Shown here: in pieces, positions 1 to 32,624 of the stretch | How the letters are laid out: each line of letters opens with the position of its first letter | How positions within the stretch are numbered: the first letter of the stretch is position 1 | From: Candidatus Omnitrophota bacterium | GTDB taxonomy: Bacteria; Omnitrophota; Gorgyraeia; Gorgyraeales; Gorgyraeaceae | NCBI GenBank assembly: GCA_042570105.1 | Contig: JBHPHW010000001.1 | Coordinates: 19,932 to 83,931, forward strand | Reading direction: 5' to 3' | Length of the DNA: 64,000 nucleotides | The notes under the pieces: model-generated | Databases searched by the model: none | The model's input: only the letters and a program-made list of their open reading frames with translations | Told to the model about the DNA's origin: nothing | Translations under genes and position numbers: made by a program

Positions 1-230
1 TCAAGGATTAAACGATATTATAGGTCGTGTTGAGAAAGTTTTACCCTATATTAATGATAATAGTTTTGATTTGGTGACTATGGTCAATACATTTGGGATT
101 ATGGGGCGCGAGAGGTATGGGGAACCTATTGACCAGGAATGGCTGATGAAAGAAATAGCTAGAATATTAAAACCAGGTTCATTTGTTGCCATATTAGATC
201 CTTTTAGAGATATAACTATTAACAAACAAG
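1..230 (+). other. C-terminal part of a class-I SAM-dependent methyltransferase domain inside the giant protein (FDLV motif II end, then LKPGSFV motif III-like). Implies an MTase domain straddling the window edge.
   Basis: Translation ...NDNSFDLVTMVNTFGIMGRERYGEPIDQEWLMKEIARILKPGSFVAILDPF matches the canonical F-D-x-V ... L-K-P-G-G region of Rossmann-fold MTases. Confidence 0.5.
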
Positions 231-3200
231 AAGAATCAGCCATAAAAGCAGGATTGGATATTGTCCACAGTAAAATCCACTCGCACCCTCATCATTCAGA
301 AAATGTTCTTGTCGCATGCAAGTTCCCTCTAGTAACTCAGGAGGGGCAAATAGAAGATGGTAAGGTCGAAGTCGCCTTTGACTATCTATTTAATCTAGTT
401 GGATTTTCCACTAAATTACGTCGAGTTAGAGAATATGGCAAGACATTGAGAGATTTAATCGATAATCTCGAAGTAAAATATTCTGACATAAGACGTAGAA
501 TTTTAGATAGCGAAGGAGATCTTAGAGAGGTGATAATTATTTCCCGTAATGGAGAGGTGCTTGAAAGAGCTAAGGCCTTGGATACAGAGCTTAATCCTGG
601 CGATGTGGTACAGATTTTTCATAGGGTAGGTGGCGGATCAGGCACTGAGCTTGAAGCGGATTTGACCGAATCGCTTTATGAACTGACAGGTATAGAAAAA
701 CGTATTTGGCAGCACGCCATTAAAGAATTAAAACCTGAAGAGATAGCCCTATTGGACGAAAGGCTTAATTCCCCAGGTTTAGTAGGCCCCTTGCTTATTC
801 ATTTCTATCTGGATACTTATGTTGCAAGAGATAATGGTATTGAGAAGTTAGCAGTACTAGCATTAGATTATCTTGCACAGGAAGATATTGATATAGAAGC
901 TGTCATTAGAGACGAGCACAAAGAAGAATTTGAACAGGTCAGAAGGTTATACTTATGGTATCAATGGAGGATAATAGATGGTAAATACATTGAATATTAT
1001 AATTCTGAGGAAATTGCAAGGATGAGTGGAGTAAGTGTGGATATAGTCAATAGTTATAAAGATATGATCCGAAGGCATCTTGTTTGGATGTACAGTTTGA
1101 ACTGGGTTGTTAGGTGCAGGGAAAGGATTAGAGCCAAAGCAAGGACTAGAGGATGGAGCGAAGAGAAACTTCGAGAAGAATTAGGGGTTTCTGAAGAAAG
1201 ATATGGATATATAGGTTGGGTGGCTGAAAGGATCTGGCCTAGTTATGTTAAGAAAGCTAGTGAGATATTTAGAAAAGAGGTTTCTTTCCTGATGTATGGA
1301 GGTGGAAGGGCCGAGGTGCTCGATAGACTACCTATAGGTAGTCGAATCAGACTATTAAGGTATGAGAAAGGCTTAACTCGAGAGGAATTGGCATTGAGAT
1401 ATGAAGGTAACGCTCGGCTAATAGGAGACTGGGAAAGTGGAATAAGAATACCCAACCCTAACAATATGAAACAATTAGCAGAGGCATTAGGCGTAGAAGT
1501 GAGTGAGGTAATGTATGGTCTAGAGAGAAGCGAGGCATTAAAGGTATTGACCATGGGTGGTCGGATCGAACTATTTAGGTATGAAAGAGGCTTAAGCCAA
1601 AGAGCGCTGGAATCGGAATGTGACATCAGAGTGAATGGTACAGTAGGGGCGTGGGAAAAAGGAAGGGGTATTCATAGAGCCGATGAAGTGAAAAAATTAG
1701 CAGAGGTATTAGGCGTAGAGGTAAGTGAGATTTTGCATGGCCTAGAGAGAAGTGAGGCATTAAAGGTATTAACCCCAGGTGATCGGGTCGAACTATTCAG
1801 ACATGAAAAAGGCCTAGCTAAGGGTAAGTTGGCATCGATGATGAAAGGCATCCCTCTCCCTGAGCGAACGAAAAAGCTGGCAGAAATATTAGGCGTAGAT
1901 GTAAGTGAGATTTTGTATGGTTTAGAGAGAAGTGAGGTATTAAAGGTATTAACCCTCGGTAAGCAAATTAGATTATTTAGGAATGAAGAAGGTTTGACTC
2001 AGGGAATGTTGGCATCGAGATGTGATGTTAATGACTCGACAGTAGAACGCTGGGAAATGGATATAAGAACACCTGAACCTGACAATATGGAGAAGCTAGT
2101 AGAAATATTCCCAGAGCTATCTCAAATTGGTGAGTCGGGCACTGATGGTTCGCCAATAGTTATTGCTGATTGGGATACCCAAGTCGAAGAAGGTCTCAAA
2201 CGTTTATTGTTCACGCCGGTATTTGAAGATAACGAGGCGCTTTGGCAGAAAGCCCTTACGCTATTGCGCACTGATCCGCCACATAGCTTACGATCTCTAT
2301 ATCAAACCTTTCAACGCGTGTTGAATAAAAAAGGATTTCCATTTGGCAAATTCCAAGAAACCTACCGTGGTCGCATTAACTTTACCGAAGAATTGCAGCC
2401 TCCAGTATTAAAGCCATGGCAGGAAACCGAACGCCCATCACTAGATACCATAGCCTATGTAAAGCTACAACAGCGCAAGTTGCTTCATGCGGTCTGGCGG
2501 AGATTACCTTATATATTACATGCTGACCCCGAGAGTCAGTTCGAGATCGTTATTTCAACTATGGGAGAAAATGATATCTTAGATTTACCTCGTAGGGAAG
2601 ATGTACTTTGGGTTGATGTACTTTTGAAGGGAGATACGCCCCTCTATAGAGAACTGAATGCCAAACTGCCAGGGCTAGATTATGAACAACTTCAAGGATC
2701 TCTTGGGATCATTAAACTGATTGCTGCAACCAATGAGCATAATGAACCTGTTTTGATCGCTCCCTGGATAGGAGTAAATCCAGGTATATGGAAATGGGCA
2801 AGTAGAGAGCGGAGTCAGGTTGAAGGGTGGCATCGTGAAGCGCTAACAGCATTAGAACTTCTTAAGGATCAGATTGGTGTAAAGGAAATCCTAATTCCTA
2901 CAAGCACACAGATGAAGGCTCTGCCGCCGTTACAGCAAAAGATTAACGACCATCCACCCTTCGAAAATGTCTTGGGTTTACATTACAGTCGACCATCACC
3001 CCAACACAAGGAAGTTACTCGGACCGTTACTTTATGGAATAACGAGGCAGAAATGACAGCAAAATTCTGGAGTACTGTCTCTGATGGTTCAGAGGGAAGA
3101 GTTGCTCCTTTGATTCCGCAGTGGAAACCGCACCACATAGATGAACGCATTACGGCATTCACACGCAAGGCAAAACTGCATATGTCCGGCATTTTTACAG

Positions 3201-6200
3201 AAAAAGAGATTGATAGCGTCATTCAACGGTTTGAGATTATAGACGAATCCTTGTATCGTAGGCATTTTAGTTTGATTACCGTTGAGTCTAGCTCACCGGG
3301 GGATGAAGAGAGTCCTTCAGAGAACGCATTGTACTTGTTGCAGGTGGCACCTACCCTTCTTGGCGTGAGACCCAAGAGTTATGTCTTAGTAGATTGGCGA
3401 GCAGGGGAGAGTTTTAGTGACATTGAAAAATGGATTTTACAACTCAATGCACTTGCTCCATTGCTATTGCACGTTAATAGAGAACTTGCTCTTAATGTGC
3501 CGTTTGGACAGAGCTTGATTGTTGTCCGTGATTCTGTGATTAATGAACGATTAAATGACCTTATTCGCTCATCAGGATGGGGTCGCGGTATAAGTTATAA
3601 GGAAGAAGAATACGAGTATTGGGCAAAAGAAGGGTTTCCTAGTTTATATGTGGACTTGATGAGGGAGAGAACGAGGCTAGACCAGTCAAAGCCTTCTACA
3701 GGTATTTGGTCTCGTTGGTTAGAAGGAGTTGGCGTGCCGGAGATTGATACGTTGAGCGATGCGGAAACTGTATTATTACAGAGAGAGCTTGATCGATTTG
3801 ATGCAACACTCGAGCTTATGGCTGACTACCTCAGAGAAGTCTGGGGTGTTCCCATAGACTTTCGCAGACTTCCACGATTATTAGGCAAAACAGCTACACG
3901 AAGACGAACTAGAGTAGTTCCGAGGATTTCACTGCCTAAGCAGCAAACGTCTGATCCTGTAACTGACTCATCGGAATCTTCTTATTCAAGACTTAGTTCA
4001 GATCGAAGATTTAGCGTAGATAGCATTCTTATAGATAGCCACCAAGAGCAAGTACGTGAAATCCTGGCAGGATTTATACTTGGTGAGATAAGTGAAGTAG
4101 AGGCAATAGATAGAATTATAGCTTTAGGAATTGACAGAGGTTTGGCAGAGGCGTATACACTGCAGGTTCAAAGCCCTCTTATGATGCTCGGTGGGAAAGA
4201 ACCAGACCCTGCCGGTGGGACGATAGGTACTGCGGTTGTGCCGTTAGATATCCTACCAGACACTGCAGGTGAGCCTGAGACTGATTTTAGCGATTCTAGC
4301 GAATGGGAAACGCCTCTACTTTGGTTAGGGCATGTATTAAATTTATATGATAGTAAAAGTTTTATGAGAAAGGGTAGAGATGTTTCAGATCGGCGCATAT
4401 CGGAAACTGCTCATGGATTTGATGGTCTGCATTTTGATAAAAATAAAGAAGATGCCCTTTATGAATATTATAAGCTTTGCTTGGAATGGGAGCAGGGCTT
4501 GGTGGATTCAGAAGCGATCGATAAGTTTCTGTCTGAGCTTTGGGAAAAAGAGAAACTCATAAAAGAATTAAGCAAAGAGGATAATTGGTATTTGTTTAGC
4601 GCTCTACGTGATGAGAGACAACGTTTTATTTCGATTTCTTGTGCAGAACATTGGTATAGGAATATGGGAATACGTTTGGGTGGGTTGGAAAATAAAATTG
4701 CCAAGACATGTCTTGAGATGATGAAGAAAGATATGGGATCTTTTTCCATGGTTATTCTCCCATTAGTGACAAGTATTATTTCTCACATGCCGCCTCCAGG
4801 GTTGGAGGATTCCGAAGGCTTGGCTGTTATTAGTGAGGTTTCTTTCTGGCAATCGTCTTCTCAAGATAGGCGCTTACGCAGTATTTTTATGCAATTTTAT
4901 CATTTTGTTCCTCATGGGATTTGGGCAGATTATTTAGAAAAACTGTCAAAACACCTTTCTCCTAATGAGGCCCGTCCGATTATTAAGAGGGCTGTAGATA
5001 TTCTAGAAAAGATTTGGAGAGGCCAGCAGAAAATAGATGAAGATTTAGAAGGCCAAATATTACCTCTTTCAGAAGAAGAATGGAGTCGAGAGGTTTTTAT
5101 GTTCTATCTTTTTTTAGCACTAGAAGAAGGTTGTAGTCGGGGTGACATAGAACGCCTTGTGGTAAGGACTATTATTAATCCTGAGACATTACGTATATTC
5201 CCACAAAAAGAATTAGAAAGATTGGAAGCTATTTTAAACGAGATAAAAGAAAGAGGAGTTCCGCCAAAATGGGCTGAGGGTTTACTTGAAAGACAAACTC
5301 ACCTAGAAGCTGAGATTAATAGACGTAGTGGCAAGAGTTCTCAGGATAACGTTTCGGCACAAGAGACCCCTGATGGATTTGTAGTTAAAGGTAAAGCATT
5401 TTTTAATATAGCTTGGAGACATCAATTTGTTCAAAAACTCGATGTAATTTTTGAAAAACCTATACGACACGCAACACGAGAAGTGATGCTAAAGAGTTCC
5501 CTTGAATTTTTATCTGAGGTAGTCGAAAAACGTTCCCTTGACCCTGTTGAAAGAGGAAGTTTACTTGAATGGATGAATGCACCTTACCTCAGTTTAAGCA
5601 GCCATTACTTAATTGTATCGGTATTCTTAAAGGATTTCAAAGCTCGCGCGAAAGAAAGAGCCATTCCAGAGGAAAATATACCATCGATTATTCAAGATAT
5701 AAGAGAAAGAAATACTCTAGTTGCTGACTTACCAGGTTCAGATGTAACAGCAAATGATAGACTAGAATATTTTCGCCAGAACTTGGGTGAATCCTCAGAT
5801 CTCATTCCTTTTGGCTGGGGATATGTGGCCTGTAGTGGAATCCAGGATCCTACGATATATTTCTTAGATCCTCAAGGTTACATAAGTCTACAAAGTTTCA
5901 ATCTTAAATGGGCCTTGGAGAAGAATTTTGATGTACCTTATCCGGTATTACAAGCTTATCCTGAATGGGATATAGGTAGTCTATCGGGCTGGTGGATTGA
6001 AGCAGAAGATTTTGAAAAGCTGGTTCCCAAATTATTAGAAGTGAAAGATTCTGCACCAGAAGAAATCAAGGAGCAATTGGAGAGACTCAGACAGGAGATT
6101 ATAGAAAGATGTAATGATTCGCCTTATTTAACTTGGGAAGGGTCGATTGGAGTAATACATGGTCTTTTGCGCCAGTATCCAGGCTGGAAAGATGGCGAAG

Positions 6201-21200: not shown

Positions 21201-24200
21201 AGACTTCTGCGATCATAGTGAGAGATAGTGGGGTCGCTAGCCTTGTTGAACGACGCAAGAACGCAGATAATGTCTATATCATGACCCAAGAGGATCATAA
21301 AGAGATGAGAGAATTTGACGATCCCACTTTTAGGGGTCGTATAAAAGAGATGTTAATAGGATTCTTAAAAGGACATAAACTTGAAGAAGCTGTTTTAAAG
21401 CCTAATCGAGCAGCTCACGGAGACGATGTATTATTTTTCGATGAACAAAATCTGGATGAAGCTACTGATAAGGCACTACAACTTTTACAGGCAGGGCAAA
21501 ACATAATCATGCAGGAGCGCATTAAGCCTCCCTTTGTGATGGAAGAAGATGGACCAAAAGACTGGAACCTCAGGATCTTTGTCTCGCACGATCAACACGA
21601 TCAACCTATTGTTAGTGATATGGATAATATGCTTGTACGCATTGATAAAGAAGGAGATGCTGTTAATATCAGTAAGACAGCTAAAGTGTGCACAATTGAG
21701 GAAGTCGCGTCTCAATTGGGTATCTCCGAGATCGAACTAGGAGAGATAAAAGAGCAGGTGGAAGAGATTTCAATAAAGGCATTTCAGGCAATTGAGAATG
21801 CTATGAGAGATGATAAGGTATTAGGTGATTCTGAACATTCTACAGATTTAATGGGAGTCGATGTGATGGTAGTTAAGGAAGAAGGAAAATGGGTTGTGTA
21901 TATGATCGAGGTAAATGATTTTCACTCAGGAGGTCAGGGTTTCTTGGATAGACATTTACGTGAACTCCAGGCGCAGGGCGTTACAATCGCAAAAGATAGT
22001 ATAGGGAAGGCAAATCGTGACTTTGTAGCTACTATGGTTCGCCGAGCGCAGAAATACGCTGGAGTCGTTGATTTTAATCCCTCTATATACCGTAAAATCA
22101 GAGCCCAGTTAAAGCGCCTTAGATATTCCGACGCCTATAGTAATAAAGTTTTCGGAGAGCTAATATCGAGGGATAGACACATGCCAAATGGAGATGCATC
22201 AAGGCCTGATGCTTCTAGTATGGAAGATCAGTTAGAGCTTATAAAGAGAGATATCGAAGAGCTTGTCAGAAAAAAGACAGACCGATCGGATAGAACGTTC
22301 AATATCTACTGTGTTGGTATTGGTCAAGATACTATTGGAACAACCACTATACTTCAAATACTCTACGAAACGCTCCTCGGGAGGCAAAAGGTGTTGTCGG
22401 AATCAGATAAGCCAAAAGCAGATCCAGAAAATTGCACTGTAAGAATATTCCGGATAGACCCAAGAGAAGAAGTTGTTGAAAAGGCACAGGCCTACTTTGA
22501 TGAGGTTATGGCTAATCCACTTGAGAGTATTGGCGTAAATTTTGGCACTTTGGTAGTAGAAGCACATTGTGCTAATGCGCTTGATCCTGATCAACTGAGT
22601 GAAGTTAAAAGGCATATTCGCTCAAGTCATAAAAAGAGATGGTACCAGAGAAACTTTGACGCTGATTATGTTTTTCATCGTAGTCTGTCATATCCAAATA
22701 GTATGGCCCAAGACCCAGAGAGCGCTCTTTATAAAGATCTTAGATCTATGAGCGTTGAGGATATGGCGACTTTTATAGATATGTTTTTACAAAGTTATAA
22801 TGTTTTACTTGCGTTTGGAAAGAATGGTACACATTACATTGTTGAGCCAGGAGGCATTGGTCATTCTCGACATCTTAAAGATGATCGTGAAAGTTATGAA
22901 GTTGGAGTCTATCGAGTTCCTGGGACAAAGATAATAACTAGACGTGAGTTAATGTCAATGACTGATGACCAAGACCCACAGATCCCCTTGGGAAGCATAG
23001 GAGATCGCGCAACAGGGATACTTAAAGTAAATAATATAAATGCTGTTAGAAAGATGAAACTCCAGAACTTTCAACAGGCAATAGAGGATAGCAAAGCGAA
23101 GACAGTTAAAAAACTACTTGATGCAGCACCTCTCATTAAAACAGAAGGACTACTGCCCGATGGTACTGAATGGCGCATTGAACCATTTGAAAAATCCGAT
23201 AAACGTTTGCTTAATGAATGGTTCGCTTACGAGAATAGAAGCTTACTAATCCCAGTTACTACACATTATCTTAGATCTTTTTTAAGGTCTGGAGGTTTTG
23301 ACTATAAATTTATAACGATAAATTCTGAAGGCGAAGAGAGAATCGAAGGAGTATTAGGACATAGCCATAGGTTTCCTTCTGGTTGGAGGTATGATCTTAA
23401 GGGATTTAAGGCATGGTGGCCTTATATAGATATAGTAGAACTTGCTTCTTGGAATAGAGGTCGAAAAAGACAAATAAAAGGTATTGCATCAAGACTTATG
23501 GCAGTAACTATTAGGGATTATCTATTCCAAGGCTTTGATGGTAGGACGCTAGTATGTGCTGAAACTAGGGATGGTCGACGTTTAGTAAGTAGAATTGGAT
23601 TTGAACCAATAAGCCATAGAGGTTTCTTCCCTCACTGGTATGAACTTACTCCAGAGAAGGCCTTAGAATTTCTTGAGCAACAGATTAAATTAGAAAGCGA
23701 TAAAGGTGATAGCGCTGTAAACCAGACTACAGAGGCAAAGGAATTGGTTGAACCAGTTGATCCTAATGAAATTCAAACTTCTCCTATCGGACCATCCTAC
23801 CAATTTGTAGGAGATTTTTCGGAAAAGGGCTCTATGCTCAGGGCTCAAGTTAAAAGTGAAGTAGGGCTTCAGTATGAGTTAAGTATTGAGAGAATACCGG
23901 CTGAGTCAAGTATCGAGAGTATACTAATACATAGAGATTCTTATGATTACAACCTCCGGTATAACGGTAGTCAAGTTATGAATATTAGAGTTACCAATGT
24001 AGATGGCAAAATTTATATTGGATATATAGGGCGAGCAGATCGCGATAGAATTCATGACGGCGTATATTATATGCTTTTTAATATTATGCTTTGCGACCTA
24101 AAAGATAGAGTTGGCTTGGACTTTAATGGATTAAAAGTAGGAGGTGTAATGGGACTTAGATATTCAAACCCGAGAATTGCAGCAGGCTCAAATAGGTTTG

Positions 24201-25861
24201 GAATTGAGTTATTAGAAGAAGAACAAGAGAGGGTTTTGGAACTTATCGAGAGAGAAGTTGAAAGCGGTGTTTCTATTAAATATGTTGCAGAGAGAGCAGA
24301 AGAACCTTATTTAGCCGTAGGGTCATGGAAACCTTTTAAGATCTTTTTGAGAGGTGCTGATGGTAAGTCCATTACTGATTTGAAACCTTATAAAGAATTA
24401 GAAGACTTAGCTAATAGGGATCCAGAAAAGTTTTTACAGGAACTCAAGAAGCTCATCGCCCAAGGAGAAGTCTTTCTGGGGGGATGGCGCCTAGATTACG
24501 AATTGAATCCTGAAAAACTTAACTGGTTACAGTCTTATGTATCAGGCCTGCCGCAGCTACCGTGGCGCGTGGAGATTGATAAACTTCCTGCCAGAAAGAT
24601 CCTTGCATCACTCAATCTTTTAGAATCCGAAAATATACCTGGCGTAACACTTGAACGTGAATGGGAAGAGGAAGAGATGGGCTTGCAAGTTAAGAGGTTT
24701 AAGCTTCCCAAAAGGCACACTGTCGAAGTAGCTACAGAAGGAATTGAAATCCTCCAACAAGAACTGGCAGATCCAAGAAAAGTACAACTTACAACCTTTG
24801 ATTTCCTTTATAGCCCTGAAGGCTATCTAGTTGCAGTCTTCCCAGTTATTTCTCAAGAAAGGACCAGCTTGTCTCCTGCGGACAAAGAGATCAGTGATAT
24901 GAACCTCAGGTATCTTAATCTTTCTCGATATTACTTTGAAATTCCTCCGCTTAAAGGCCCTAGGGCAGAAGAATTATGGGCAAAATATGTAAAAGAACAG
25001 CCTGAATTAGAAAAGAAGATACAGGTCTATCGAGACTCAAACTTTGGATCACTTGATATAATAGATCTACCTTCAGGTACGTCGCTTCATATTCCTTACT
25101 TAGTATTAAGTGCTGATATATCGGAAGGAGAAGTAATGCTAGATGCATTTGATCCTGATTTTGAGTCTGAAGAAGAGCCAGAAATTAAATACGAGAAGAC
25201 TATGATATTACCATTTCCTACAACTTGCGAACTTAATATTGATGAGGATGAAGGATATTTTAGGGCACTTCTCACGAGACTCGGATTGTACGAAGGAGCA
25301 GATGTTCTAGTGGTAGGACCTGGGACAGGGATTGATACGTGGCTTGCATGGCTTAAGACAAAAAATAAGATTGATGTTATTGGAATAAATCCACTCGAGG
25401 TTGCAGATACAGAATTGACCGCAGAATATTCAGGATTTGAAGTTGAGACAATTGTTGGCGACAACATAATTGATGAAAAAGGGGATCCGCGTTTTAATCG
25501 GAAATACGATTTTGTAATCTGGAACATGCCTGCATTTGGATCACTTTCAGGAATACGTAATGGATCGATTGAGAAAACTTCCTTGTTGCAATACCATGAT
25601 GGTGATGTAGATGGAGCAATGTTACGTCGTTTTGCAAAAGGTCTTCATAAAGTGCTTAAACCAGGTGGTAGAGCCTTGATATGGAATGCATTTGAAACTT
25701 TAGAACCTTTTGAAATTCTCAAATCAGAAGGGATTAAGGTTGAAAAACTTAATAGAGATGCATATTTACTTACTATTAATGAAGAGGCATTTACGCATAT
25801 AAATAGCGAAGGTATTGGTGAAAAAGTTACCAGAACCGCTGAAAGGAGAACATGCATATAA
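1..25861 (+). CDS. Giant multidomain membrane protein, 5'-partial. Reading frame 2 is open from nt 2, so the gene starts upstream of the window. At least 8619 aa are encoded here: MTase tail, Cro/C1-HTH repeats, kinase-like motifs, DedA-like TM domain, about 16 winged-helix plus 4 LuxR-type HTH, 62-aa NWW repeats, ATP-grasp-like, GNAT-like, C-terminal SAM-MTase.
   Basis: Six-frame track ORF 71..25861 (8596 aa); my translation of nt 2-70 in the same frame (QGLNDIIGRVEKVLPYINDNSFDLV...) has no stop; stop TAA at 25859-25861. A 25.8-kb open frame in roughly 40% GC DNA cannot arise by chance. Domain calls are from motifs read in the translation (see sub-features). Confidence 0.9.
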   Translation, partial: QGLNDIIGRVEKVLPYINDNSFDLVTMVNTFGIMGRERYGEPIDQEWLMKEIARILKPGSFVAILDPFRDITINKQEESAIKAGLDIVHSKIHSHPHHSENVLVACKFPLVTQEGQIEDGKVEVAFDYLFNLVGFSTKLRRVREYGKTLRDLIDNLEVKYSDIRRRILDSEGDLREVIIISRNGEVLERAKALDTELNPGDVVQIFHRVGGGSGTELEADLTESLYELTGIEKRIWQHAIKELKPEEIALLDERLNSPGLVGPLLIHFYLDTYVARDNGIEKLAVLALDYLAQEDIDIEAVIRDEHKEEFEQVRRLYLWYQWRIIDGKYIEYYNSEEIARMSGVSVDIVNSYKDMIRRHLVWMYSLNWVVRCRERIRAKARTRGWSEEKLREELGVSEERYGYIGWVAERIWPSYVKKASEIFRKEVSFLMYGGGRAEVLDRLPIGSRIRLLRYEKGLTREELALRYEGNARLIGDWESGIRIPNPNNMKQLAEALGVEVSEVMYGLERSEALKVLTMGGRIELFRYERGLSQRALESECDIRVNGTVGAWEKGRGIHRADEVKKLAEVLGVEVSEILHGLERSEALKVLTPGDRVELFRHEKGLAKGKLASMMKGIPLPERTKKLAEILGVDVSEILYGLERSEVLKVLTLGKQIRLFRNEEGLTQGMLASRCDVNDSTVERWEMDIRTPEPDNMEKLVEIFPELSQIGESGTDGSPIVIADWDTQVEEGLKRLLFTPVFEDNEALWQKALTLLRTDPPHSLRSLYQTFQRVLNKKGFPFGKFQETYRGRINFTEELQPPVLKPWQETERPSLDTIAYVKLQQRKLLHAVWRRLPYILHADPESQFEIVISTMGENDILDLPRREDVLWVDVLLKGDTPLYRELNAKLPGLDYEQLQGSLGIIKLIAATNEHNEPVLIAPWIGVNPGIWKWASRERSQVEGWHREALTALELLKDQIGVKEILIPTSTQMKALPPLQQKINDHPPFENVLGLHYSRPSPQHKEVTRTVTLWNNEAEMTAKFWSTVSDGSEGRVAPLIPQWKPHHIDERITAFTRKAKLHMSGIFTEKEIDSVIQRFEIIDESLYRRHFSLITVESSSPGDEESPSENALYLLQVAPTLLGVRPKSYVLVDWRAGESFSDIEKWILQLNALAPLLLHVNRELALNVPFGQSLIVVRDSVINERLNDLIRSSGWGRGISYKEEEYEYWAKEGFPSLYVDLMRERTRLDQSKPSTGIWSRWLEGVGVPEIDTLSDAETVLLQRELDRFDATLELMADYLREVWGVPIDFRRLPRLLGKTATRRRTRVVPRISLPKQQTSDPVTDSSESSYSRLSSDRRFSVDSILIDSHQEQVREILAGFILGEISEVEAIDRIIALGIDRGLAEAYTLQVQSPLMMLGGKEPDPAGGTIGTAVVPLDILPDTAGEPETDFSDSSEWETPLLWLGHVLNLYDSKSFMRKGRDVSDRRISETAHGFDGLHFDKNKEDALYEYYKLCLEWEQGLVDSEAIDKFLSELWEKEKLIKELSKEDNWYLFSALRDERQRFISISCAEHWYRNMGIRLGGLENKIAKTCLEMMKKDMGSFSMVILPLVTSIISHMPPPGLEDSEGLAVISEVSFWQSSSQDRRLRSIFMQFYHFVPHGIWADYLEKLSKHLSPNEARPIIKRAVDILEKIWRGQQKIDEDLEGQILPLSEEEWSREVFMFYLFLALEEGCSRGDIERLVVRTIINPETLRIFPQKELERLEAILNEIKERGVPPKWAEGLLERQTHLEAEINRRSGKSSQDNVSAQETPDGFVVKGKAFFNIAWRHQFVQKLDVIFEKPIRHATREVMLKSSLEFLSEVVEKRSLDPVERGSLLEWMNAPYLSLSSHYLIVSVFLKDFKARAKERAIPEENIPSIIQDIRERNTLVADLPGSDVTANDRLEYFRQNLGESSDLIPFGWGYVACSGIQDPTIYFLDPQGYISLQSFNLKWALEKNFDVPYPVLQAYPEWDIGSLSGWWIEAEDFEKLVPKLLEVKDSAPEEIKEQLERLRQEIIERCNDSPYLTWEGSIGVIHGLLRQYPGWKDGEGLLKELREMPRAPNGTQDNEIAFFHIFGDGHAQRLPDVLNMKHCSRDWRLYGQMGKPKFKIEARWGLDGRCRATLGGRAYIGGSGPRTYRFSFKDGDFTTEKTLDAMWVRLWPHEKEHKLLVTSNRGMTLFVRDEQDVKVLWELPLAMQVVDRVRWIGEGDRLSWLLVETPDKVFIVDARTGEIKERFHLPIKGVDIECDFEDEDYKYLYLTVHTHNLAGGHITEEGIQYGPVWSVDLLKMAEEEGEVRQSPLPVTPRVIEKLRQALKEVNVDTTSLTDEQIEQLYRIIRHRERRPKQHLRQIADLTRGSSLGWNVSMRQRVRDVLADFAKTALTENLTGRQLQEIGAGQQVRVLTGQGLDYVIKVQRYREEIRATYDRMDVDPQSFEYQFAVRRTFEGYQEGNRTAEEILKDTGTILEIESLASHGVSLTFTNKAGEQETVSPDSFEVQKRADYTGGEMLERLINEGRIDEAKQLLTDFFELNHKLWRLGVLLYDFNILENIGVMVDADGQFQLYLMDFGATLRESPLTHRWVNTLFPTGFFMGGDTIFGRSPHIVVLKDELRRFGDTNGEVFSHWVKLVREYLTIGQFNAIWRIDVVDQGIVDEKHPISSSWTRKAMVTSGLGAVISAGLIGLASQLPELKNILYIILPVLGVSFIFTNGILYALHRNLRRLEDQISTGTIRAGPHSLIRPFHNALPSEENSPYLAYANSGILYVNKGALTNLNPILQYAVYLHELTIHIIPYILWGIFCDLLWIKRGIREVKIGQVHLITARHFDNRTINEFRLALDKCQNKKEVLGLLEKYQPLLEGTERAVEQILQYVKQGKKVAVGVEQDPSALKEILQEMPENIANLRIIMQRKRIDWTDANSDIFEKIISIYSKIAGVLYFSHKELLDSGQVELIGLDSDRLRNVPSIVTDDARGQAIALLGTLSQMSMEVVEEELEIRDAHMSKKILSYYKNPDKSDVTFVVLLGSRHFRRMKNNLIVLGLHELVDWYALQPGEVSARWIRKAKDLLLELSQYGWLGMGYLKDLSPDVIIKLSRAIYVHRKKESNDFEGSEVVERFWKNSHITYEYAERFGEVYAYWYAQLDDAKKSGKLIKLPTFGEDDEVLDIGSGLSGLNIIENWDSPARITLLGNDPFVIAMLMTAKRIYGRNNIKIVYSYVNEWRFPEDTFTYIRADKILPYLSEEERERLFEEVYSALRNGGTFASVNITDDLDLPEECASSLRELGLDAVVRPLPYEFDEISDAIKVGIFAVKKSGGIIDSQLSERGRKLVEWVEESQGVDVTELREWLDFTKIRNEAQGGFVILDWTTFWGLSWGSLSSLIKTIVSDNLEPLDDALRREKQYIVSSAEKALHEAIKNAEIWGSDHLPGHLAIVTWHIAPDGLTFHIIDEAVGQSDTELESPRLVPGSRPLPSDGWIGDGEGIRQIEQLGFSVEAHAIVKDGSRLGTDVILRKNFVARKGQISSRLKRFLIVPSVVIAGLFLSGFTGDYEDVLNLVLGIFSAVVLIGAWGYILSPKLVEWWGHFWDWFKGYYLQIGIVLLVIGVSFPIFLYQGNIKEVMGEFGYLGAFLISMVNNLTVIVPGPGILAAISLATEFNPWLIAFLAGLGATFGQVTSYGLGYSSEPVVKKVWGYKRISGGMRRWGGPFIFLMYLLPPVFPFADIAGIIAGTLRYPLLKYFLYCMPGNILKHIYLVWGGVLGWDALSPFLPDIFKLGSSSIESNMMAFLPFAGLFMVGGVLSGPTTKIAAERDENGVTVSLPGNGGKSKVRFSREEVLILTARGQSSEELAEETGIDLPSRILLLKRSIFSKLKEAWVAFDTLDDARDMYLSAIKRELLKKGYPEAIVNVAAMSETPWKEARRVLNEIQIRLDEGRSPSLALPWAIIYRSPRQAINLGTEIAMQEFLNEASSPERRNESIRFLRELERVAPEEDINMEIIRICSLSPETIEMFAREKSSDVFGDLIKDALSKPLLTPNQRRILNTVKENPGLIEAEISRRTGFMESTVTRNIRILESKRLVQTARVKGRVEVYLYGQVPEDALLTIDRILALLRKNPQQGLTIKAIARRIGVSKSTVRRNVDVLKSKGLVKIVKEGRGFRVYLPSKFQETAREKILNALREDPEKVLRKSTIGRKAGIPKTTVKRHIDILESEGLVRTKEVVGGIGVYLPDEVPEDILTTDEKILKALGEENDLTQEALSKKTGLHVDTVGSAVKRLEAKGLLKIEKSGIRNANRVHLKTDKDASLIKPAISGGSEESFVLQLPDGTAHIFAPGDRIRHPLYGNGIILEVVPDKDGVPGVNIEFSYSKEGQAKLSLCLELSALQGKLSPLERESGSLVKRENEDSLDDTERNILGLMAKGKTYREIAEETEIPVKKITTSIFSAIRRKFKTTSRGDPDLRLRTIIIGAKRGDIEDLNIANFVRRIDRLLIITRTLLNGQEDAIVAFMDEGFSNREIASELGIEEGEVEAHISNINRELKESIEEITEESILNLEETGTILPLSDLEREILRANGDSPREVAEELDKAGGQIESYWNSILVKFNVSTITEARKIFFVKIRGGLLEQGYPELIADGVARDKNPVKEARELLGRQEGFIEDGYPPRLASLLALKERDPENIIELGIEIAIQEFLEGRNSKCIEFLEGLMEEVSIEDITDKIRNICLRDLEILKGFSRIKQSTRFGDLIKSIIPDTPNQEKTLKIVQENPGLTAREIAGRTQAAIRTVNRHVKELKDKDLIETRRVGREVRVFLKGEVPADVLTYREKILKIVQENPGLIITEIARRTRIPGTTVRRHVEELESKDLIETRRVGIEVRVFLKGEVPADILTSRERILKILKENPGLTTTEIARRTQIPGTTVRRHVKDIESTDADREDAGGEESTPQPLVAVAGPGTWAPEGELVALVDSELPRGARQHHPENLFDDQIERMLYPEHQQRGGGSNATESHMTTLVDQVREGNPTAIQEAIALLKKTSSSLLDSQMNELEQAVCESLEIFFHEINPAFQEALREGTSFIEPATPPIGRYSYPIKRYRYPICCMASSGAMLQIVKERFGKDIEISAVRADIHKGSSEKHDWNELKIGSRRFYLSFTDHQFDRRLWVHNPRDRSKWYVNERDVQDYDDLSAEERDRLVVFEEITGIEEAFYKDHGLTFVEPNFNKFDNEDEIQRVIAFFYEISDQKELESTAAGESRDELAIAPRISEGIQERKSLTPLGQKMYDWWVALIHENPEKVYQIQLKKTIAQAVEVDPKTVFNNRAKVNQHLNADGYPIIPNNVADVIYNWWVALIKENPEKAYQVQFKEAIAKAIGVQPKTVSHNLAGINRRLKDDDHLVIPNKVADAVYNWWRIAIEEDPEKVYQIHYRKVIAQAVSVKENTITHYLTEVNQRLKNDGHLIIPNNAADAIYNWWFVLIAQDPEQAYQKQSRETIRKATRINIHSVSTNNLAKVNQRLESEGRPQIKVGRRSRAEESEQPERPLAITSARGREFHRLENGMLLPGPFTPQDIDPLSLLFGNRGTTTPHTNRGVPDVLSLDFLGLGGGRARGYQRKKYPSIAQSSHRPGGDRKFPIITGGSEPRIQGRSIPYSDEEKEILMAYGETIETINKELPHIVSRRIELLISSIEVKSDRSLLEAREDFLPIGDKLSRKGYSSNIIESVNQKIEEGYPESLAFPGAIMAQDPKRAAELGVAQAFREYWQTRNPKCMEFIRELSVISEEDVDNEIWKIYQTKTREMLRFIRIIVMIFPAFIPRARKRKILGFVKENPGAEQREIEKELKIPSSSLSKDIDELEEEGLIEKRRAGGQNRIYPKGKVPDIVLPRIQERILNVIKEKPGLIGADIGRELDIPWFNVGYNIRRLEKRRLIKKVEVRGEARIYLEGETPETALTKREEEILRLVREKPGLTHAEIARRIGLTPITIKINTERLEELDLVERVKLLKWDRIYPKGEVPEVPLIERQKRIYRAIQDNPGISQRELEEKAKVTEGTVRRDLKKLKEVGLVRMFRVGRGYRIYPEDKAPESPLTVIQETILEDVKKNRGTTQAAIAKRTGYKNGVVSSNLRKLEEIGKVEILRTGLGTRVYLKGRAPKVSLTQREERILRLVRRNHGLTLKEIDERLRIPRGTTNYNVKKLEQSGEVETIEVEGKIKVYPKGKVPKVVLSKRQSEIFDIVKETPGITRPELARRVEITGAALDKHRARLEQKGLIEIVRVEKEIRIYEKGKAPKTPITTNQETILEVARDFPGLTYEEIFQLGLFAFINTVGGVARRLRAKGLVRIIRDGQTMRVYSTEEGETILEHLKPIKSLPASVVYHGLSITVREFIDTLEIKDKILDDQGNLKVNIYINDEAARLDSLIENDDKVSIMSIGAKSDKGSSATFSLGGTWMLVRLISLAAMIALFTLPVSWRGLGFATIIAMVDLDQFCAAVDPRIVRLFSGRGNRGLLRPFSNAEPLDQLEVSERTIKHGIYNGKPTISLVKDGKIYADKDKLSHIGPYNQLLIYIHELFHKLLWFGEGRHWKELFANIGVASFLLVKNVAPLLLILIFTDITNMLALIPLIITPILSHKFFSAIAARWTVGRVTLIAGKDLEEKIKEVVSLMKSREYDRALQIINPLIEEHRRYILSELRAEASNGLQRSIAERLSSEIDFNLPLKDQAVFDAVSMMARHGAYSRYSSVTMENLGSLMVFHDLSLHLKENGMISNSNDLKELYDGFLQPYRYATAGVPVLNIAARIKPFSLDLMNHMSEEFYMYCWRAIRAQRNYILRAVDHIWNSLVGVFLVVRNLIQVSLVSHKIRRKIEERNAMVAQILLSHLGEDSGFKTRISRLKNAPDVLGSLYKSEPIDFAALLALVDTSGFYYSAPSVATEHEKGQIVRKGKEIVNIGVDASMYHPLDVDYLSLLEEGHNRDDANMVLIHDSSKVSIKKVNGKKVISVSEGIMFHNRALKLVRFDEPLTLHYIANFQGGIDGYISKVNVPSCGHSSITDYTEEKDISDLILRESGISLPETSAIIVRDSGVASLVERRKNADNVYIMTQEDHKEMREFDDPTFRGRIKEMLIGFLKGHKLEEAVLKPNRAAHGDDVLFFDEQNLDEATDKALQLLQAGQNIIMQERIKPPFVMEEDGPKDWNLRIFVSHDQHDQPIVSDMDNMLVRIDKEGDAVNISKTAKVCTIEEVASQLGISEIELGEIKEQVEEISIKAFQAIENAMRDDKVLGDSEHSTDLMGVDVMVVKEEGKWVVYMIEVNDFHSGGQGFLDRHLRELQAQGVTIAKDSIGKANRDFVATMVRRAQKYAGVVDFNPSIYRKIRAQLKRLRYSDAYSNKVFGELISRDRHMPNGDASRPDASSMEDQLELIKRDIEELVRKKTDRSDRTFNIYCVGIGQDTIGTTTILQILYETLLGRQKVLSESDKPKADPENCTVRIFRIDPREEVVEKAQAYFDEVMANPLESIGVNFGTLVVEAHCANALDPDQLSEVKRHIRSSHKKRWYQRNFDADYVFHRSLSYPNSMAQDPESALYKDLRSMSVEDMATFIDMFLQSYNVLLAFGKNGTHYIVEPGGIGHSRHLKDDRESYEVGVYRVPGTKIITRRELMSMTDDQDPQIPLGSIGDRATGILKVNNINAVRKMKLQNFQQAIEDSKAKTVKKLLDAAPLIKTEGLLPDGTEWRIEPFEKSDKRLLNEWFAYENRSLLIPVTTHYLRSFLRSGGFDYKFITINSEGEERIEGVLGHSHRFPSGWRYDLKGFKAWWPYIDIVELASWNRGRKRQIKGIASRLMAVTIRDYLFQGFDGRTLVCAETRDGRRLVSRIGFEPISHRGFFPHWYELTPEKALEFLEQQIKLESDKGDSAVNQTTEAKELVEPVDPNEIQTSPIGPSYQFVGDFSEKGSMLRAQVKSEVGLQYELSIERIPAESSIESILIHRDSYDYNLRYNGSQVMNIRVTNVDGKIYIGYIGRADRDRIHDGVYYMLFNIMLCDLKDRVGLDFNGLKVGGVMGLRYSNPRIAAGSNRFGIELLEEEQERVLELIEREVESGVSIKYVAERAEEPYLAVGSWKPFKIFLRGADGKSITDLKPYKELEDLANRDPEKFLQELKKLIAQGEVFLGGWRLDYELNPEKLNWLQSYVSGLPQLPWRVEIDKLPARKILASLNLLESENIPGVTLEREWEEEEMGLQVKRFKLPKRHTVEVATEGIEILQQELADPRKVQLTTFDFLYSPEGYLVAVFPVISQERTSLSPADKEISDMNLRYLNLSRYYFEIPPLKGPRAEELWAKYVKEQPELEKKIQVYRDSNFGSLDIIDLPSGTSLHIPYLVLSADISEGEVMLDAFDPDFESEEEPEIKYEKTMILPFPTTCELNIDEDEGYFRALLTRLGLYEGADVLVVGPGTGIDTWLAWLKTKNKIDVIGINPLEVADTELTAEYSGFEVETIVGDNIIDEKGDPRFNRKYDFVIWNMPAFGSLSGIRNGSIEKTSLLQYHDGDVDGAMLRRFAKGLHKVLKPGGRALIWNAFETLEPFEILKSEGIKVEKLNRDAYLLTINEEAFTHINSEGIGEKVTRTAERRTCI
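1340..2110 (+). repeat. Array of about 4 Cro/C1 (XRE)-type HTH repeats (62-75 aa units: LFRYEKGLTxxELA ... KKLAEvLGVEVSEILYGLERSEALKVL) within the giant ORF. Repeat cores are near-identical at DNA level (1505-1552, 1727-1774, 1907-1954).
   Basis: Protein repeats LLRYEKGLTREELALRYEG / LFRYERGLSQRALESECD / LFRHEKGLAKGKLASMMKG / LFRNEEGLTQGMLASRCD followed by conserved LAEALGVEVSEVMYGLERSEALKVLT. DNA 48-mers gag(g/a)t(a/t)(a/t)tgtatgg(t/c)(c/t)tagagagaag(c/t)gagg(c/t)attaaaggtatt(g/a)acc recur three times. Confidence 0.6.
7570..7790 (+). other. Protein-kinase-like (APH/choline-kinase-type) catalytic motif region inside the giant protein: DFNILENIGV (catalytic-loop-like D-x-x-x-x-N) followed 20 aa later by LMDFGATL (DFG-like).
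   Basis: Translation ...WRLGVLLYDFNILENIGVMVDADGQFQLYLMDFGATLRESP at about nt 7684-7770, compared with the PKL-fold pattern HgDlhpgNil...vIDfg.a. Confidence 0.35.
10620..11460 (+). other. Integral membrane region of the giant protein with a DedA/VTT (SNARE-associated, TVP38/TMEM41-like) domain preceded by 3-4 TM helices.
   Basis: Hydrophobic helices FLIVPSVVIAGLFLSGF, LVLGIFSAVVLIGAWGYIL, IGIVLLVIGVSFPIFL. Then YLGAFLISMVNNLTVIVPGPGILAAISLA ... FGQVTSYGLGY ... GGPFIFLMYLLPPVFPFADIAGIIAGTLRYPLLKYFLYCMPGNILKHIYLVWGG, collinear with YqjA/DedA motifs (N..F.PGD, G..VSY.LGR.LG, RF...R...P..AG). Confidence 0.5.
11540..11650 (+). other. LuxR/GerE-type HTH module 1 in the giant protein (LTARGQSSEELAEETGIDLPSRILLLKRSIFSKL).
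   Basis: Pattern L(T/S)xRExEvLxLxAxGxSnxEIAxxLxIsxxTVxxHxxNIxxKL read from translation. Confidence 0.5.
12150..12930 (+). repeat. Winged-helix (MarR/TrmB/ArsR-like) HTH array A: 4 tandem units of about 63 aa (ILxxVKENPGLxxxEIAxRxGxxxxTVxRxxxxLExKGLVxxxxxGRxxxxYL).
   Basis: Translation ILNTVKENPGLIEAEISRRTGFMESTVTRNIRILESKRLVQTARVKGRVEVYLYG; ILALLRKNPQQGLTIKAIARRIGVSKSTVRRNVDVLKSKGLVKIVKEGRGFRVYL; ILNALREDPEKVLRKSTIGRKAGIPKTTVKRHIDILESEGLVRTKEVVGGIGVYL; ILKALGEENDLTQEALSKKTGLHVDTVGSAVKRLEAKGLLKIEKSG. Confidence 0.6.
13255..13850 (+). repeat. Three further LuxR/GerE-type HTH modules (ERNILGLMAKGKTYREIAEETEIPVKKITTSIFSAIRRKF; DAIVAFMDEGFSNREIASELGIEEGEVEAHISNINRELK; EREILRANGDSPREVAEELDKAGGQIESYWNSILVKFN).
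   Basis: Three spaced copies of the ExxILxLxAxGxSxxEIAxxL...v...i...KL pattern in the translation. Confidence 0.5.
14285..14815 (+). repeat. Winged-helix HTH array B: 2.6 tandem copies of a 201-bp (67-aa) unit that is more than 90% identical at the nucleotide level. The unit encodes ILKIVQENPGL..EIARRT.IPGTTVRRHV.EL.SKDLIETRRVG.EVRVFLKGEVPAD.LT.RE.
   Basis: The DNA string cctaaaaata(g/c)ta(c/a)aagaaaacccaggattaa recurs at 14303, 14504 and 14705 (period 201). Downstream ...aaagatctgatcgagactcggagggtaggga(g/t)agaagttagagttt(t/c)tctgaaaggtgaagtcccggcagat occurs twice. Confidence 0.85.
15857..16600 (+). repeat. Four tandem copies of a 186-bp (62-aa) repeat encoding YNWWVALIxENPEKxYQxQxxxxIAxAxxVxxxTVxxxLAxxNxRLxxDGxxxIPNNvADaI. 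A possible additional HTH-like module of unknown family.
   Basis: ta(t/c)(g/a)a(c/t)tggtgg recurs at 15857, 16043, 16229 and 16415 (exact 186-bp period). The translation shows four collinear copies, each beginning NWW or DWW. Confidence 0.75.
17455..19090 (+). repeat. Winged-helix HTH array C: about 8-9 tandem units of 60-70 aa (RILxxVKEKPGLTxAEIARRxGLTxxTxxxxxxxLEExGLVExxxxxxxxRIYPKGxVPExxL).
   Basis: Translation shows successive ...KENPGAEQREIE..., ...KEKPGLIGADIG..., ...REKPGLTHAEIA..., ...QDNPGISQRELE..., ...KKNRGTTQAAIA..., ...RRNHGLTLKEID..., ...KETPGITRPELA..., ...RDFPGLTYEEIF... Each is followed by a basic wing (RxGRGxRIYP/VYL) and a (K)GxVPxxxLTxRExxIL linker. Confidence 0.6.
19330..19900 (+). 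other. Second transmembrane block of the giant protein (at least 3 predicted helices), followed at about 19660-19740 by an HExxH-like motif (IYIHELFHKLLW).
   Basis: Hydrophobic runs MLVRLISLAAMIALFTLPV, GFATIIAMV, IGVASFLLVKNVAPLLLILIFTDITNMLALIPLIITPIL. HELFH read at about 19690-19705. Confidence 0.4.
21400..21960 (+). other. ATP-grasp-like (RimK/glutathione-synthetase-type) domain inside the giant protein.
   Basis: IIMQERIKPPFVMEEDGPKDWNLRIFVSHDQ...ISEIELGEIKEQVEEISIKAFQAIE...DLMGVDVMVVKEEGKWVVYMIEVNDFHSGGQGF. The ending (GvD.mv...G...v.EVN..pg) is the characteristic ATP-grasp C-terminal strand-loop. Confidence 0.45.
23440..23640 (+). other. GNAT-acetyltransferase-like motif A region inside the giant protein.
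   Basis: WNRGRKRQIKGIASRLMAVTIRDYLFQGFDGRTLVCAETRDGRRLVSRIGFEP resembles the GNAT motif A (R/Q-x-x-G-x-G/A ... l.l.v...N..A..lY...GF). Confidence 0.3.
25290..25700 (+). other. C-terminal class-I SAM-dependent methyltransferase domain of the giant protein. Motif I is VLVVGPGTGID. The motif IV variant DFVIWNMPAF resembles the (D/N)PP(Y/F) of amino-MTases (N6-adenine / N5-glutamine type). Post-motif LKPGGRALI.
   Basis: Translation ...YEGADVLVVGPGTGIDTWLAWLKTKNKIDVIGINPLEV...RKYDFVIWNMPAFGSL...GLHKVLKPGGRALIWNAFE. Confidence 0.5.
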
Positions 25862-25943: not shown

Positions 25944-26282
25944 ATGAGATCAAGTGATTTTGCAGAGAAGAGGAGATTTAAAAGGTTAGATCTGTCTCTT
26001 CCTATGACACTCAGGCGTACTTCAGATAATGGGAAAGAAGAAGCCCAGGATGGAGTTACGATCAATGTGAGCTTTAATGGGGCATATGTAGTAGATATAG
26101 ATATAGGAAGCATAAAGCCCAATGATAGCTTACATATATCCCTATCAGTGCCAAGGGACGATACAAGGGATTTCCCATTTTCCCGTCTTACAGGAAAGGC
26201 AGAGGTAGTAAGGGTAGATAAAGATGGCCTTGCGCTTGAATTTACGGAAGATATAAATAGACTTTTTGTCGCTTCTAGCTGA
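25944..26282 (+). CDS. Single-domain PilZ (c-di-GMP-binding) protein.
   Basis: RxxxR (KRRFKRLDL) and (D/N)xSxxG (INVSFNGAYV) motifs; strong RBS ggaaggaggtg 6 nt upstream of ATG. Confidence 0.55.
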   Translation: MRSSDFAEKRRFKRLDLSLPMTLRRTSDNGKEEAQDGVTINVSFNGAYVVDIDIGSIKPNDSLHISLSVPRDDTRDFPFSRLTGKAEVVRVDKDGLALEFTEDINRLFVASS

Positions 26283-31712: not shown

Positions 31713-31763
31713 AAAGGAGGGGGTGATGGCGATATAGTTGAATAACGTAAAAGTTTAAAGGCA

Positions 31764-31816: not shown

Positions 31817-31887
31817 GTGACAAATAAGTAGGACAGACTTTAGTCTGTCAAAGACTAAAAAATAAAAAAAAGGAGGGAAAAGAAGTC

Positions 31888-32586: not shown

Positions 32587-32624
32587 ACTAGAAGTCTCTC
32601 TATAACTATCGGGAATGAGACGAT

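Follow-up and report, generated by a model that had tools for sequence, protein, structure and literature searches.

What kind of protein is encoded by the giant open reading frame (ORF) that opens a sequenced stretch of a Candidatus Omnitrophota genome, and what might its many DNA-binding-type modules do? The stretch, referred to here as the window, comprises 64,000 nucleotides (positions 19,932 to 83,931, forward strand) of contig JBHPHW010000001.1 from GenBank assembly GCA_042570105.1. On the basis of sequence comparison, the ORF probably encodes an inner-membrane-anchored, cytoplasm-facing giant-gene mosaic whose basic winged helix-turn-helix (wHTH) arrays bind nucleic acid, a grade that belongs to this statement taken jointly. 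Any specific biological role, be it the tethering of the chromosome or of foreign DNA or regulation, is proposed with far less confidence.

Frame +2 runs from nt 2 through 8,619 sense codons before its first stop, a TAA whose last base is nt 25861, as compared with 1,208 codons for the runner-up stop-free stretch of the window in any frame (ORF scan). The numbering of amino acids (aa) starts with the first full codon at nt 2.

2..25861, + strand: giant ORF; stop-free frame with native in-frame codon usage, open at the 5′ window edge.
23..190, + strand (aa 8-63): class I S-adenosylmethionine (SAM)-methyltransferase, C-terminal half, cut by the window edge (Pfam Methyltransf_11).

The match to this first domain covers only positions 49-94 of the 95 in the Pfam profile. 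Because the first match is to the C-terminal half of a methyltransferase domain and the frame is still open at the window edge, the giant protein extends upstream of the window. A log-likelihood of codon usage, for which 19 downstream genes served as the training set, was scored in 300-codon intervals and is above zero in every interval of the giant ORF, with a minimum of 0.122 nat/codon versus 0.15-0.39 in control genes. All profile and homologue matches, from aa 8 to aa 8585, lie in one frame. The closest nucleotide repeats are 87% identical (201 nt in 2.7 copies, 14289-14826; Tandem Repeats Finder (TRF)), a second repeat (186 nt, 15857-16284) is 74% identical, and a repeat search finds no near-identical long repeats in the giant ORF. 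Since the nucleotide repeats reach at most 87% identity, repeat collapse is unlikely. Shine–Dalgarno-plus-start sites show no in-frame excess (17/16/4 by frame), although this test is weak, as only 5 of 27 neighboring genes pass the same rule.

It is very improbable that ordinary genes have been fused through a sequencing error or through mis-assembly, be it a chimeric contig or a collapse of repeats. The uncultured type of the source genome is a point in favor of such an artifact. However, 8,619 consecutive sense codons are not obtainable by random gene joining when other frames stay stop-free for so much shorter a distance, and the single frame of the domain matches, the uniform codon usage, and the divergence of the repeats argue in the same direction. 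In addition, a giant ORF followed by pilZ, the arrangement found here, is the norm in Omnitrophota. The original prediction of a single, uninterrupted, 5′-truncated frame is therefore borne out; the giant ORF is real and is the 3′ part of a larger gene.

Approximately 22% of the residues in the fragment belong to helix-turn-helix (HTH) modules, and approximately 43% have no match of any kind. About 27 HTH modules had been predicted from four families (Cro/C1, winged-helix, LuxR-type, and a repeat termed NWW). The four families are recovered with Pfam and repeat hidden Markov models (HMMs), tentatively so for NWW, and the repeat HMMs count 28-29 modules: 15 wHTH, four Cro/C1 plus one degenerate copy, five LuxR-like, and four NWW. 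These HMMs were seeded from the giant protein's own repeats; Pfam affords independent support for the Cro modules, the wHTH modules, and three GerE copies.

1103..2149, + strand (aa 368-716): Cro/C1-type HTH array, four modules and one degenerate, 73-aa period (Pfam, repeat HMM).
11519..12934, + strand (aa 3840-4311): super-module A, a LuxR-like HTH, a 135-aa helical linker domain, and four wHTH (self-comparison, repeat HMMs, Pfam HTH_24/MarR_2).
13241..13681, + strand (aa 4414-4560): two LuxR/GerE-type HTH modules (Pfam GerE and Sigma70_r4_2, repeat HMM).
13709..14827, + strand (aa 4570-4942): super-module B, a LuxR-like HTH, the linker domain, and three wHTH, the last without a wing (self-comparison, repeat HMMs).
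15854..16597, + strand (aa 5285-5532): four 62-aa NWW repeats, tentatively HTH (repeat HMM, TRF, Pfam GerE).
16949..19066, + strand (aa 5650-6355): super-module C, a LuxR-like HTH, a shortened linker domain, and eight wHTH in strict 68-aa register (Pfam, self-comparison, repeat HMMs).

The HTH-rich core, aa 3840-6355, harbors the three super-modules (n = 4, 3, and 8 wHTH), the two further GerE modules, and the four NWW repeats. The 15 wHTH copies thus form blocks of 4+3+8 with a period of 68 aa. Pfam matches to HTH_3, HTH_19, and HTH_31 fall at aa 446-702, those to GerE at aa 4414-4620, and those to HTH_24, MarR_2, and MarR in three blocks (aa ~4040-4310, 4757-4942, and 5811-6355), with HTH_24 reaching E 3e-75 across nine stretches and MarR_2 E 4.6e-53. 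The NWW repeats may tentatively be regarded as HTH, given a Pfam GerE score of 24.3 bits across 26 residues and an hhalign E of 0.06 versus the LuxR-like repeats; their profile has no significant match in the Protein Data Bank (PDB).

The segment between the wHTH block of super-module A and the GerE modules (aa 4312-4413; 12935-13240, + strand; 'FAPGDRIRHPLYGNGIILEV...') carries a faint hint of a CarD/TRCF RNA-polymerase-interacting domain. The CarD/TRCF-RID-like Tudor match at aa ~4340-4365 has an E of 0.073, which is below threshold, and serves as a lead only.

The wHTH repeat profile is nearest to the DNA-binding domains of MarR-type (AdcR, SlyA, and ZitR) and Lrp/AsnC regulators in the PDB, with AdcR matched at E 7e-9; as a test of a DNA-binding-domain identity, the MarR/Lrp-type match is significant. 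The likeness to MarR, Lrp/AsnC, and TrmB regulators extends to the shared Pfam families and to the alignment of the 68-aa repeat with the DNA-binding domains of AdcR, SlyA, FL11, and LrpA, as well as to a basic recognition helix and a wing. In contrast, those regulators carry one wHTH copy in a soluble dimer of ~150 aa, while the giant has 15 head-to-tail copies in a membrane protein and no dimerization or ligand-binding domain. There is no room for dimerization or effector-binding (RAM/ligand) elements, as the repeats abut in strict register.

The net charge is +1 to +11 in all 15 wHTH repeats, compared with −150 for the whole protein fragment. The older repeats have ratios of nonsynonymous to synonymous substitution (dN/dS) of 0.16-0.65, which means that the wHTH fold is kept while its surfaces diverge. 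The youngest repeats are the wHTH triplet of super-module B, with 87% nucleotide identity; their dN/dS of 1.5-2.8 (14270-14827), on few synonymous sites, suggests that the triplet is diversifying, with the small number of synonymous differences to be borne in mind. A nucleic-acid-binding platform is favored because of the MarR/Lrp-like profile, the basic charge of 15 out of 15 wHTH, and the dN/dS of the older repeats. The basic charge is also compatible with the function first suggested, DNA tethering at the membrane or a modification scaffold, which is speculation.

The fragment contains 17-18 hydrophobic segments in three blocks (Kyte-Doolittle scan).

8051..8470, + strand (aa 2684-2823): transmembrane (TM) block A, two or three hydrophobic helices around the loop 'RPFHNA...YLHEL' (Kyte-Doolittle); paralogous to TM block C.
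10622..11437, + strand (aa 3541-3812): polytopic membrane block with a DedA/VTT-like domain, seven or eight hydrophobic segments (Kyte-Doolittle, Pfam VTT_dom).
19343..19900, + strand (aa 6448-6633): TM block C, four hydrophobic helices with the loop 'RPFSNA...YIHELFH', which contains HExxH (Kyte-Doolittle); the loop is paralogous to that of block A.

The predicted DedA-like domain has moderate support: VTT_dom matches aa 3655-3765 within the polytopic block at E 1.7e-6, although the 28.9 bits stay below the gathering score of 33.9 and NCBIfam gives no match. The extra TM blocks predicted alongside it are present and number two. K/R-rich stretches flank TM block A, one before the first helix and one after the last. 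Domains that depend on SAM or ATP, like HTHs, are of a cytoplasmic type, and the recognizable soluble domains of the giant (SAM- or ATP-dependent enzymes, beta-grasps, and HTHs) are all of this kind. The K/R flanks and the domain types favor TM blocks that act as anchors, with the bulk of the protein in the cytoplasm. ToxR/CadC-type regulators, which have one OmpR-type wHTH, one TM helix, and a periplasmic sensor, likewise tether a DNA-binding domain covalently to the cytoplasmic membrane, but the giant differs from them in its dozens of HTHs, its polytopic blocks, and its enzymes.

In the proposed arrangement, the three hydrophobic blocks, one of them DedA/VTT-like, would hold the mosaic in the inner membrane with the soluble parts facing the cytoplasm. 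The HTH modules would have arisen via internal tandem duplication, including that of the three super-module copies, and the basic MarR/Lrp-type arrays would bind nucleic acid multivalently. The giant protein would thereby be a membrane-tethered DNA-binding platform adjoining its own modifying enzymes.

Several observations weigh against this arrangement. The Kyte-Doolittle scan gives an odd helix count in TM block A, which would put the methyltransferase and the ATPase segment outside the cell, and a signal peptide is possible in the missing N-terminus. SecA-DEAD, glycosyltransferase, peptidase, and NUDIX domains, which typify the Archaeovorin class of Omnitrophota giants, are absent from the Pfam matches to tiles of the 8,619 aa. 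The case for DNA binding by the arrays comes from comparison of sequences. Purifying selection is not seen in the youngest wHTH copies (dN/dS > 1 on few sites), most of the LuxR-like modules have an acidic net charge (−13 to +2) and might not be DNA binders, and winged helices also act as protein-protein scaffolds.

The last three points bear on a purely structural explanation, in which the HTH and wHTH arrays bind proteins, as do the tandem winged helices of ESCRT-II, Rpc34, and cullins, and organize enzymes or partners without binding nucleic acid. One architectural class described for Omnitrophota giants is that of tandem-repeat scaffolds (WD, HEAT, TPR, and NHL), and the Pfam matches listed for the giant ORF also include the winged-helix families RPA_C, Rpc34, and Ribosomal_S25. 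However, the best matches are to DNA-binding regulator families (HTH_24, MarR_2, AdcR, SlyA, and Lrp), the wHTH repeats all have a net basic charge although the protein is acidic, and selection for a scaffold alone does not easily account for the presence of four distinct DNA-binding HTH families. A scaffold of this kind is accordingly considered doubtful.

Besides the HTH arrays, the mosaic contains enzymatic and ubiquitin-like modules.

431..637, + strand (aa 144-212): ThiS/MoaD/SAMP-like beta-grasp 1 (Pfam ThiS, 47.1 bits, gathering score (GA) 22.5; NCBIfam MoaD and SAMP1).
9389..9829, + strand (aa ~3130-3276): internal class I SAM-methyltransferase (Pfam Methyltransf_25, aa 3177-3273).
9989..10576, + strand (aa ~3330-3525): HATPase_c_2-like (GHKL) domain (Pfam HATPase_c_2, PF13581 rather than PF02518; weak, E 0.0026).
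19133..19285, + strand (aa 6378-6428): ThiS/MoaD-like beta-grasp 2, without a GG motif (Pfam ThiS, 23.0 bits, GA 22.5); paralogous to beta-grasp 1.
21362..21919, + strand (aa ~7121-7306): TTL-type ATP-grasp (Pfam TTL, NCBIfam DcsG, sequence motifs).
25274..25756, + strand (aa 8425-8585): C-terminal HemK2/MTQ2-like SAM-methyltransferase (NCBIfam TIGR00537, E 2e-7; PADLOC similarity to the mad2 methyltransferase).

The fragment harbors three SAM-methyltransferase domains. Two flanking ones had been predicted and are confirmed by Pfam and NCBIfam; the third is internal and matches phosphoethanolamine methyltransferases (PfPMT-like) in the PDB at E 1.4e-5. The ATP-grasp-like domain is upheld as well: TTL scores 23.4 bits at aa 7231-7306 (GA 20.1), with coverage of 70 of the 292 profile positions, the motifs VLKP..., LRIFV, and MIEVN can be read from the sequence, and the DcsG match is weak (E 0.016). 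The domain content first predicted is largely correct, but the GNAT-like and kinase-like assignments found no support. The former (aa ~7700-7900) finds no match in Pfam (E<=5), NCBIfam (E<=0.1), or the PDB (E<=10). For the latter (aa ~2400-2660), Pfam matches neither the segment nor its homologues, a four-sequence profile finds nothing in the PDB, and an AlphaFold single-sequence model has a pLDDT of 37.5. Single-sequence PDB searches with the ATP-grasp, HATPase-like, and GNAT-like segments return no match. The two beta-grasps and the HATPase_c_2-like domain go beyond the domains first listed, and a homologue of the HATPase-like segment (P0008) matches HATPase_c_2 at 2.2e-8.

Beta-grasp 1 ends in ...HRVGGG, with the Gly-Gly-Gly (aa 210-212) at the end of the ThiS profile and internal to the ORF. 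Because of this internal position, a free Gly-Gly C-terminus would need processing, and the GGG is a possible processing site. An E1 or JAMM partner for the beta-grasp is not found in the window.

The membrane-proximal region contains a further domain that bears on processing.

8489..9199, + strand (aa 2830-3066): membrane-proximal conserved domain (P0001, E 1.2e-48, 42% identity).

P0001 is a 7,819-aa truncated Omnitrophota giant, labeled 'AAA family ATPase, partial [Candidatus Omnitrophota bacterium]', and the shared part spans its aa 925-1193. The domain (~240 aa) carries the motifs GxxHLIxxxHF and GSxH[FL]. It shows faint hints of the Tiki/ChaN/TraB superfamily (Cofac_haem_bdg, E 0.0088; TraB_PrgY_gumN, E 0.11), while its profile finds nothing significant in the PDB and an AlphaFold model from a four-sequence alignment has a pLDDT of 41.4. 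A hydrolase shared among giant proteins is one possibility for this domain.

Should such processing occur, the giant could be a polyprotein that is cut into units, for instance after the Gly-Gly of beta-grasp 1 or by a built-in membrane-proximal hydrolase. Ubiquitin-like modifiers, soluble HTH regulators, and enzymes would be released, and the HTH arrays would form a membrane-sequestered reservoir of transcription factors. The preservation of GGG exactly at the ThiS profile end despite its internal position, the HExxH in the loop of TM block C, the faint Tiki/TraB hints in aa 2830-3066, a segment conserved in another Omnitrophota giant, and published proposals of post-translational cleavage of Omnitrophota giants are in keeping with this idea. 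It is nevertheless judged unlikely, as no protease family reaches significance, JAMM, E1, C39, and S8 are not found in the ORF or its neighbors, and beta-grasp 2 lacks the GG. Moreover, the wHTH repeats abut without spacers in the 68-aa register, such that cleavage between them must fall at the junctions.

Other parts of the mosaic have no assigned family.

2150..7195, + strand (aa 717-2398): orphan region without a family, homologue, or structure match (Pfam and NCBIfam tiles, PHROGs, PADLOC).
7196..7768, + strand (aa 2399-2589): uncharacterized domain, the former kinase-like segment (homologues P0003, P0011, and P0015).
Aa 7307-8424, + strand: orphan sequence without a Pfam or NCBIfam match.

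Proteins of ~300 aa whose hydrophobic N-termini resemble signal peptides (as judged by eye) share the aa 2399-2589 domain, and one 3,150-aa protein has three copies of it. An exhaustive search with aa 2301-3500 finds domain-level relatives. Word-indexed homology searches with aa 751-2250, aa 6880-8619, and super-module A find no matches, at a sensitivity that is reduced for long queries.

Omnitrophota are known for giant genes. In several of their classes, most genomes have ORFs >20 kb, which are poorly conserved and carry few annotated domains (PMC10066038). The reported protein lengths reach 85,804 aa and, in later work, 147,155 aa, and the giants combine many TM helices with methyltransferase, GHKL-ATPase, and GNAT modules (bioRxiv 10.1101/2023.11.21.568195; PMC10066038; bioRxiv 10.64898/2026.06.07.730766). 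Approximately 80% are sequence singletons, and approximately 46% are 'TM-only', with the bulk predicted to be cytoplasmic (same literature). The genes are preceded by a locus resembling type II secretion system (T2SS)/type IV pilus loci, and most full-length giants have a divergent SecA-DEAD (West-Roberts 2023; Seymour 2023). 'Giant' has been defined as an ORF >20 kb (Seymour, PMC10066038) or >90 kb (West-Roberts, bioRxiv 10.1101/2023.11.21.568195). The present ORF, of which 25.86 kb lie within the window and the 5′ end lies beyond it, is above the 20-kb criterion.

The giant ORF shares with this class its phylum, a length >20 kb, the many TM segments, and the mosaic of methyltransferases and a domain of the GHKL-ATPase type. 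It also shares the large unannotated stretches, the near absence of homologues, internal repeats that have diverged in nucleotides, and a downstream order of pilZ, then solute-binding protein, permease, and glycosyl hydrolase genes. It therefore reads as the 3′ part of a conserved-locus giant gene of an Omnitrophota genome, and the full protein may be much longer. Homology to other Omnitrophota giants is at the domain level only (P0001 and others). It is filed under the general giant class and not under Archaeovorin because methyltransferases are the only Archaeovorin-type domains found; the SecA-DEAD could lie in the N-terminal part upstream of the window. Glycosyl hydrolase, HEAT, and dockerin domains are likewise not found in the 8.6k residues seen. 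The Pfam 'Module 1' of TM-only long proteins comprises PF08241, a histidine-kinase-like ATPase, GNAT, and HAD, with no signal peptide (bioRxiv 10.64898/2026.06.07.730766). By comparison, the fragment has PF08241 and PF13649 and a weak HATPase_c_2, while GNAT and HAD are not detected in the part of the protein that the window covers.

What sets the present giant apart is that the four kinds of HTH take up more than a fifth of the fragment, a content unmentioned in the papers on Omnitrophota giants. The terms HTH, helix-turn-helix, winged, and DNA-binding have zero occurrences in the main text of that literature, supplementary domain tables aside. Among the long proteins with a shared domain, none has the giant's HTH repeat families or linker domain within the limited sensitivity of the search. 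Neither a super-module search nor tblastn versus phage and plasmid collections finds a comparable HTH array, and a metagenome scan with the wHTH alignment yields two weak single-domain loci and no arrays. The original prediction had known of no described protein with this architecture. This stands for the HTH arrays, which appear to be new among Omnitrophota giants as far as search sensitivity and supplementary data allow, but not for the TM-rich multi-enzyme ORF as such, which is documented. Membership in a known class lowers the surprise of the size, the membrane association, and the enzyme mosaic.

What giant proteins do is an open question, on which the density of HTH modules from four families has a bearing. 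A segment with more than one-fifth DNA-binding-type modules amid SAM- and ATP-dependent enzymes supports the competing view of the giants as inner-membrane-anchored and cytoplasm-facing. More specifically, the protein could be a membrane-anchored multivalent nucleic-acid reader, in which up to eight diversified wHTH per array (15 in total), together with the Cro-, LuxR-, and NWW-type modules, bind long or multiple DNA sites at the inner membrane face beside the methyltransferase, ATP-grasp, and ubiquitin-like modules. In this full form, the proposal is a tentative one with a low probability. If it is correct, either the chromosome of the cell itself or prey DNA that has been taken up could be bound, and poly-zinc-finger or lamina-type tethers would have a prokaryotic counterpart in this protein. 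Some Omnitrophota giants would then have an intracellular, DNA-directed role instead of, or besides, the assumed extracellular one in predation. DNA binding by the arrays would be the first indication that giants touch the genome and would represent an unusual long tandem HTH array in bacteria. The 68-aa wHTH repeats and the defined arrays are small enough for expression and DNA-binding assays.

Large mosaics also occur in mobile elements. The polyvalent proteins of phages and conjugative elements, which Iyer et al. are said to have described in 2017, are similar to the giant in being very large polypeptides that join methyltransferases with unrelated enzymatic modules. In contrast to them, the giant gene lies in a chromosomal housekeeping context (PurH, YchF, FolC-like) with no phage or plasmid similarity, and its product is membrane-embedded and lacks helicase, nuclease, and relaxase modules. 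A mobile-element or defense origin was considered and rejected: tblastn versus phage and plasmid collections is empty, and PHROGs and PADLOC give generic methyltransferase similarity only.

The genes downstream of the giant ORF are as follows.

25944..26282, + strand: small PilZ gene, directly 3′ of the giant ORF (Pfam PilZ).
26317..33830, + strand: genes for a solute-binding protein, two binding-protein-dependent (BPD) permeases, and GH2-like and GH72-like glycosyl hydrolases (Pfam).

The giant ORF and pilZ are 82 nt apart, and a terminator scan of this gap finds none on the + strand. The genes in the second group start at 26317 (solute-binding protein), 27654 and 28538 (BPD permeases), 29397 (GH2), and 32625 (GH72-like). 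Most Omnitrophota giant genes are directly followed by small pilZ homologues (bioRxiv 10.1101/2023.11.21.568195, section 11), and the published locus continues with solute-binding proteins, BPD transporters, and glycosyl hydrolases (bioRxiv 10.1101/2023.11.21.568195). The order at 25944-33830 agrees with this locus. The downstream genes are chromosomal and of Gram-negative type (PilZ, an ABC sugar importer, GH2, ROK, TolC-like, HlyD, two AcrB, and T2SS-F) and further include YchF, PurH, a FolC-like gene, and histidine kinases.

The PurH of the window is 78-80% identical to those of two contigs from metagenome-assembled genomes, one labeled Candidatus Omnitrophota (UBA10183) and one labeled Planctomycetia; in the latter, the genes follow each other as they do in the window. 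Further PurH matches, which come next at 56-65% identity, are mostly labeled Omnitrophota. The closest relative, L001 (CAZZAL010000003.1, 69,961 bp), is syntenic with the window from AcrB to PurH and, judged by distance, would stop approximately where a giant-gene homologue should have its 3′ end, which fits with giant genes interrupting short-read assemblies.

From the window start to ~63 kb, all ORFs taken as genes lie on the + strand, and the GC skew is positive throughout (0.09-0.34 per 2 kb); a minus-strand gene first appears at 63024-63941. Two AcrB/RND transporter genes are adjacent. The first (41014-44637, + strand) encodes 1,207 aa, of which the C-terminal ~145 form an extension made up of a proline-rich linker and then a winged helix of the DeoR type (aa 1149-1193, Pfam E 1.4e-4); the neighboring AcrB paralogue (44651-47833, 1,060 aa) lacks the extension. 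Besides the giant, the first AcrB is thus another membrane protein of the window to which a wHTH is fused. A wHTH module common to this AcrB and the giant was rejected, as the AcrB wHTH does not match the giant's repeat HMM. Lastly, an unusual fusion is seen in the TolC/OEP-family outer-membrane gene at 37891-39714 (+ strand), whose product has a TonB_C-like domain in its N-terminal part (aa 63-123, E 9.6e-5).

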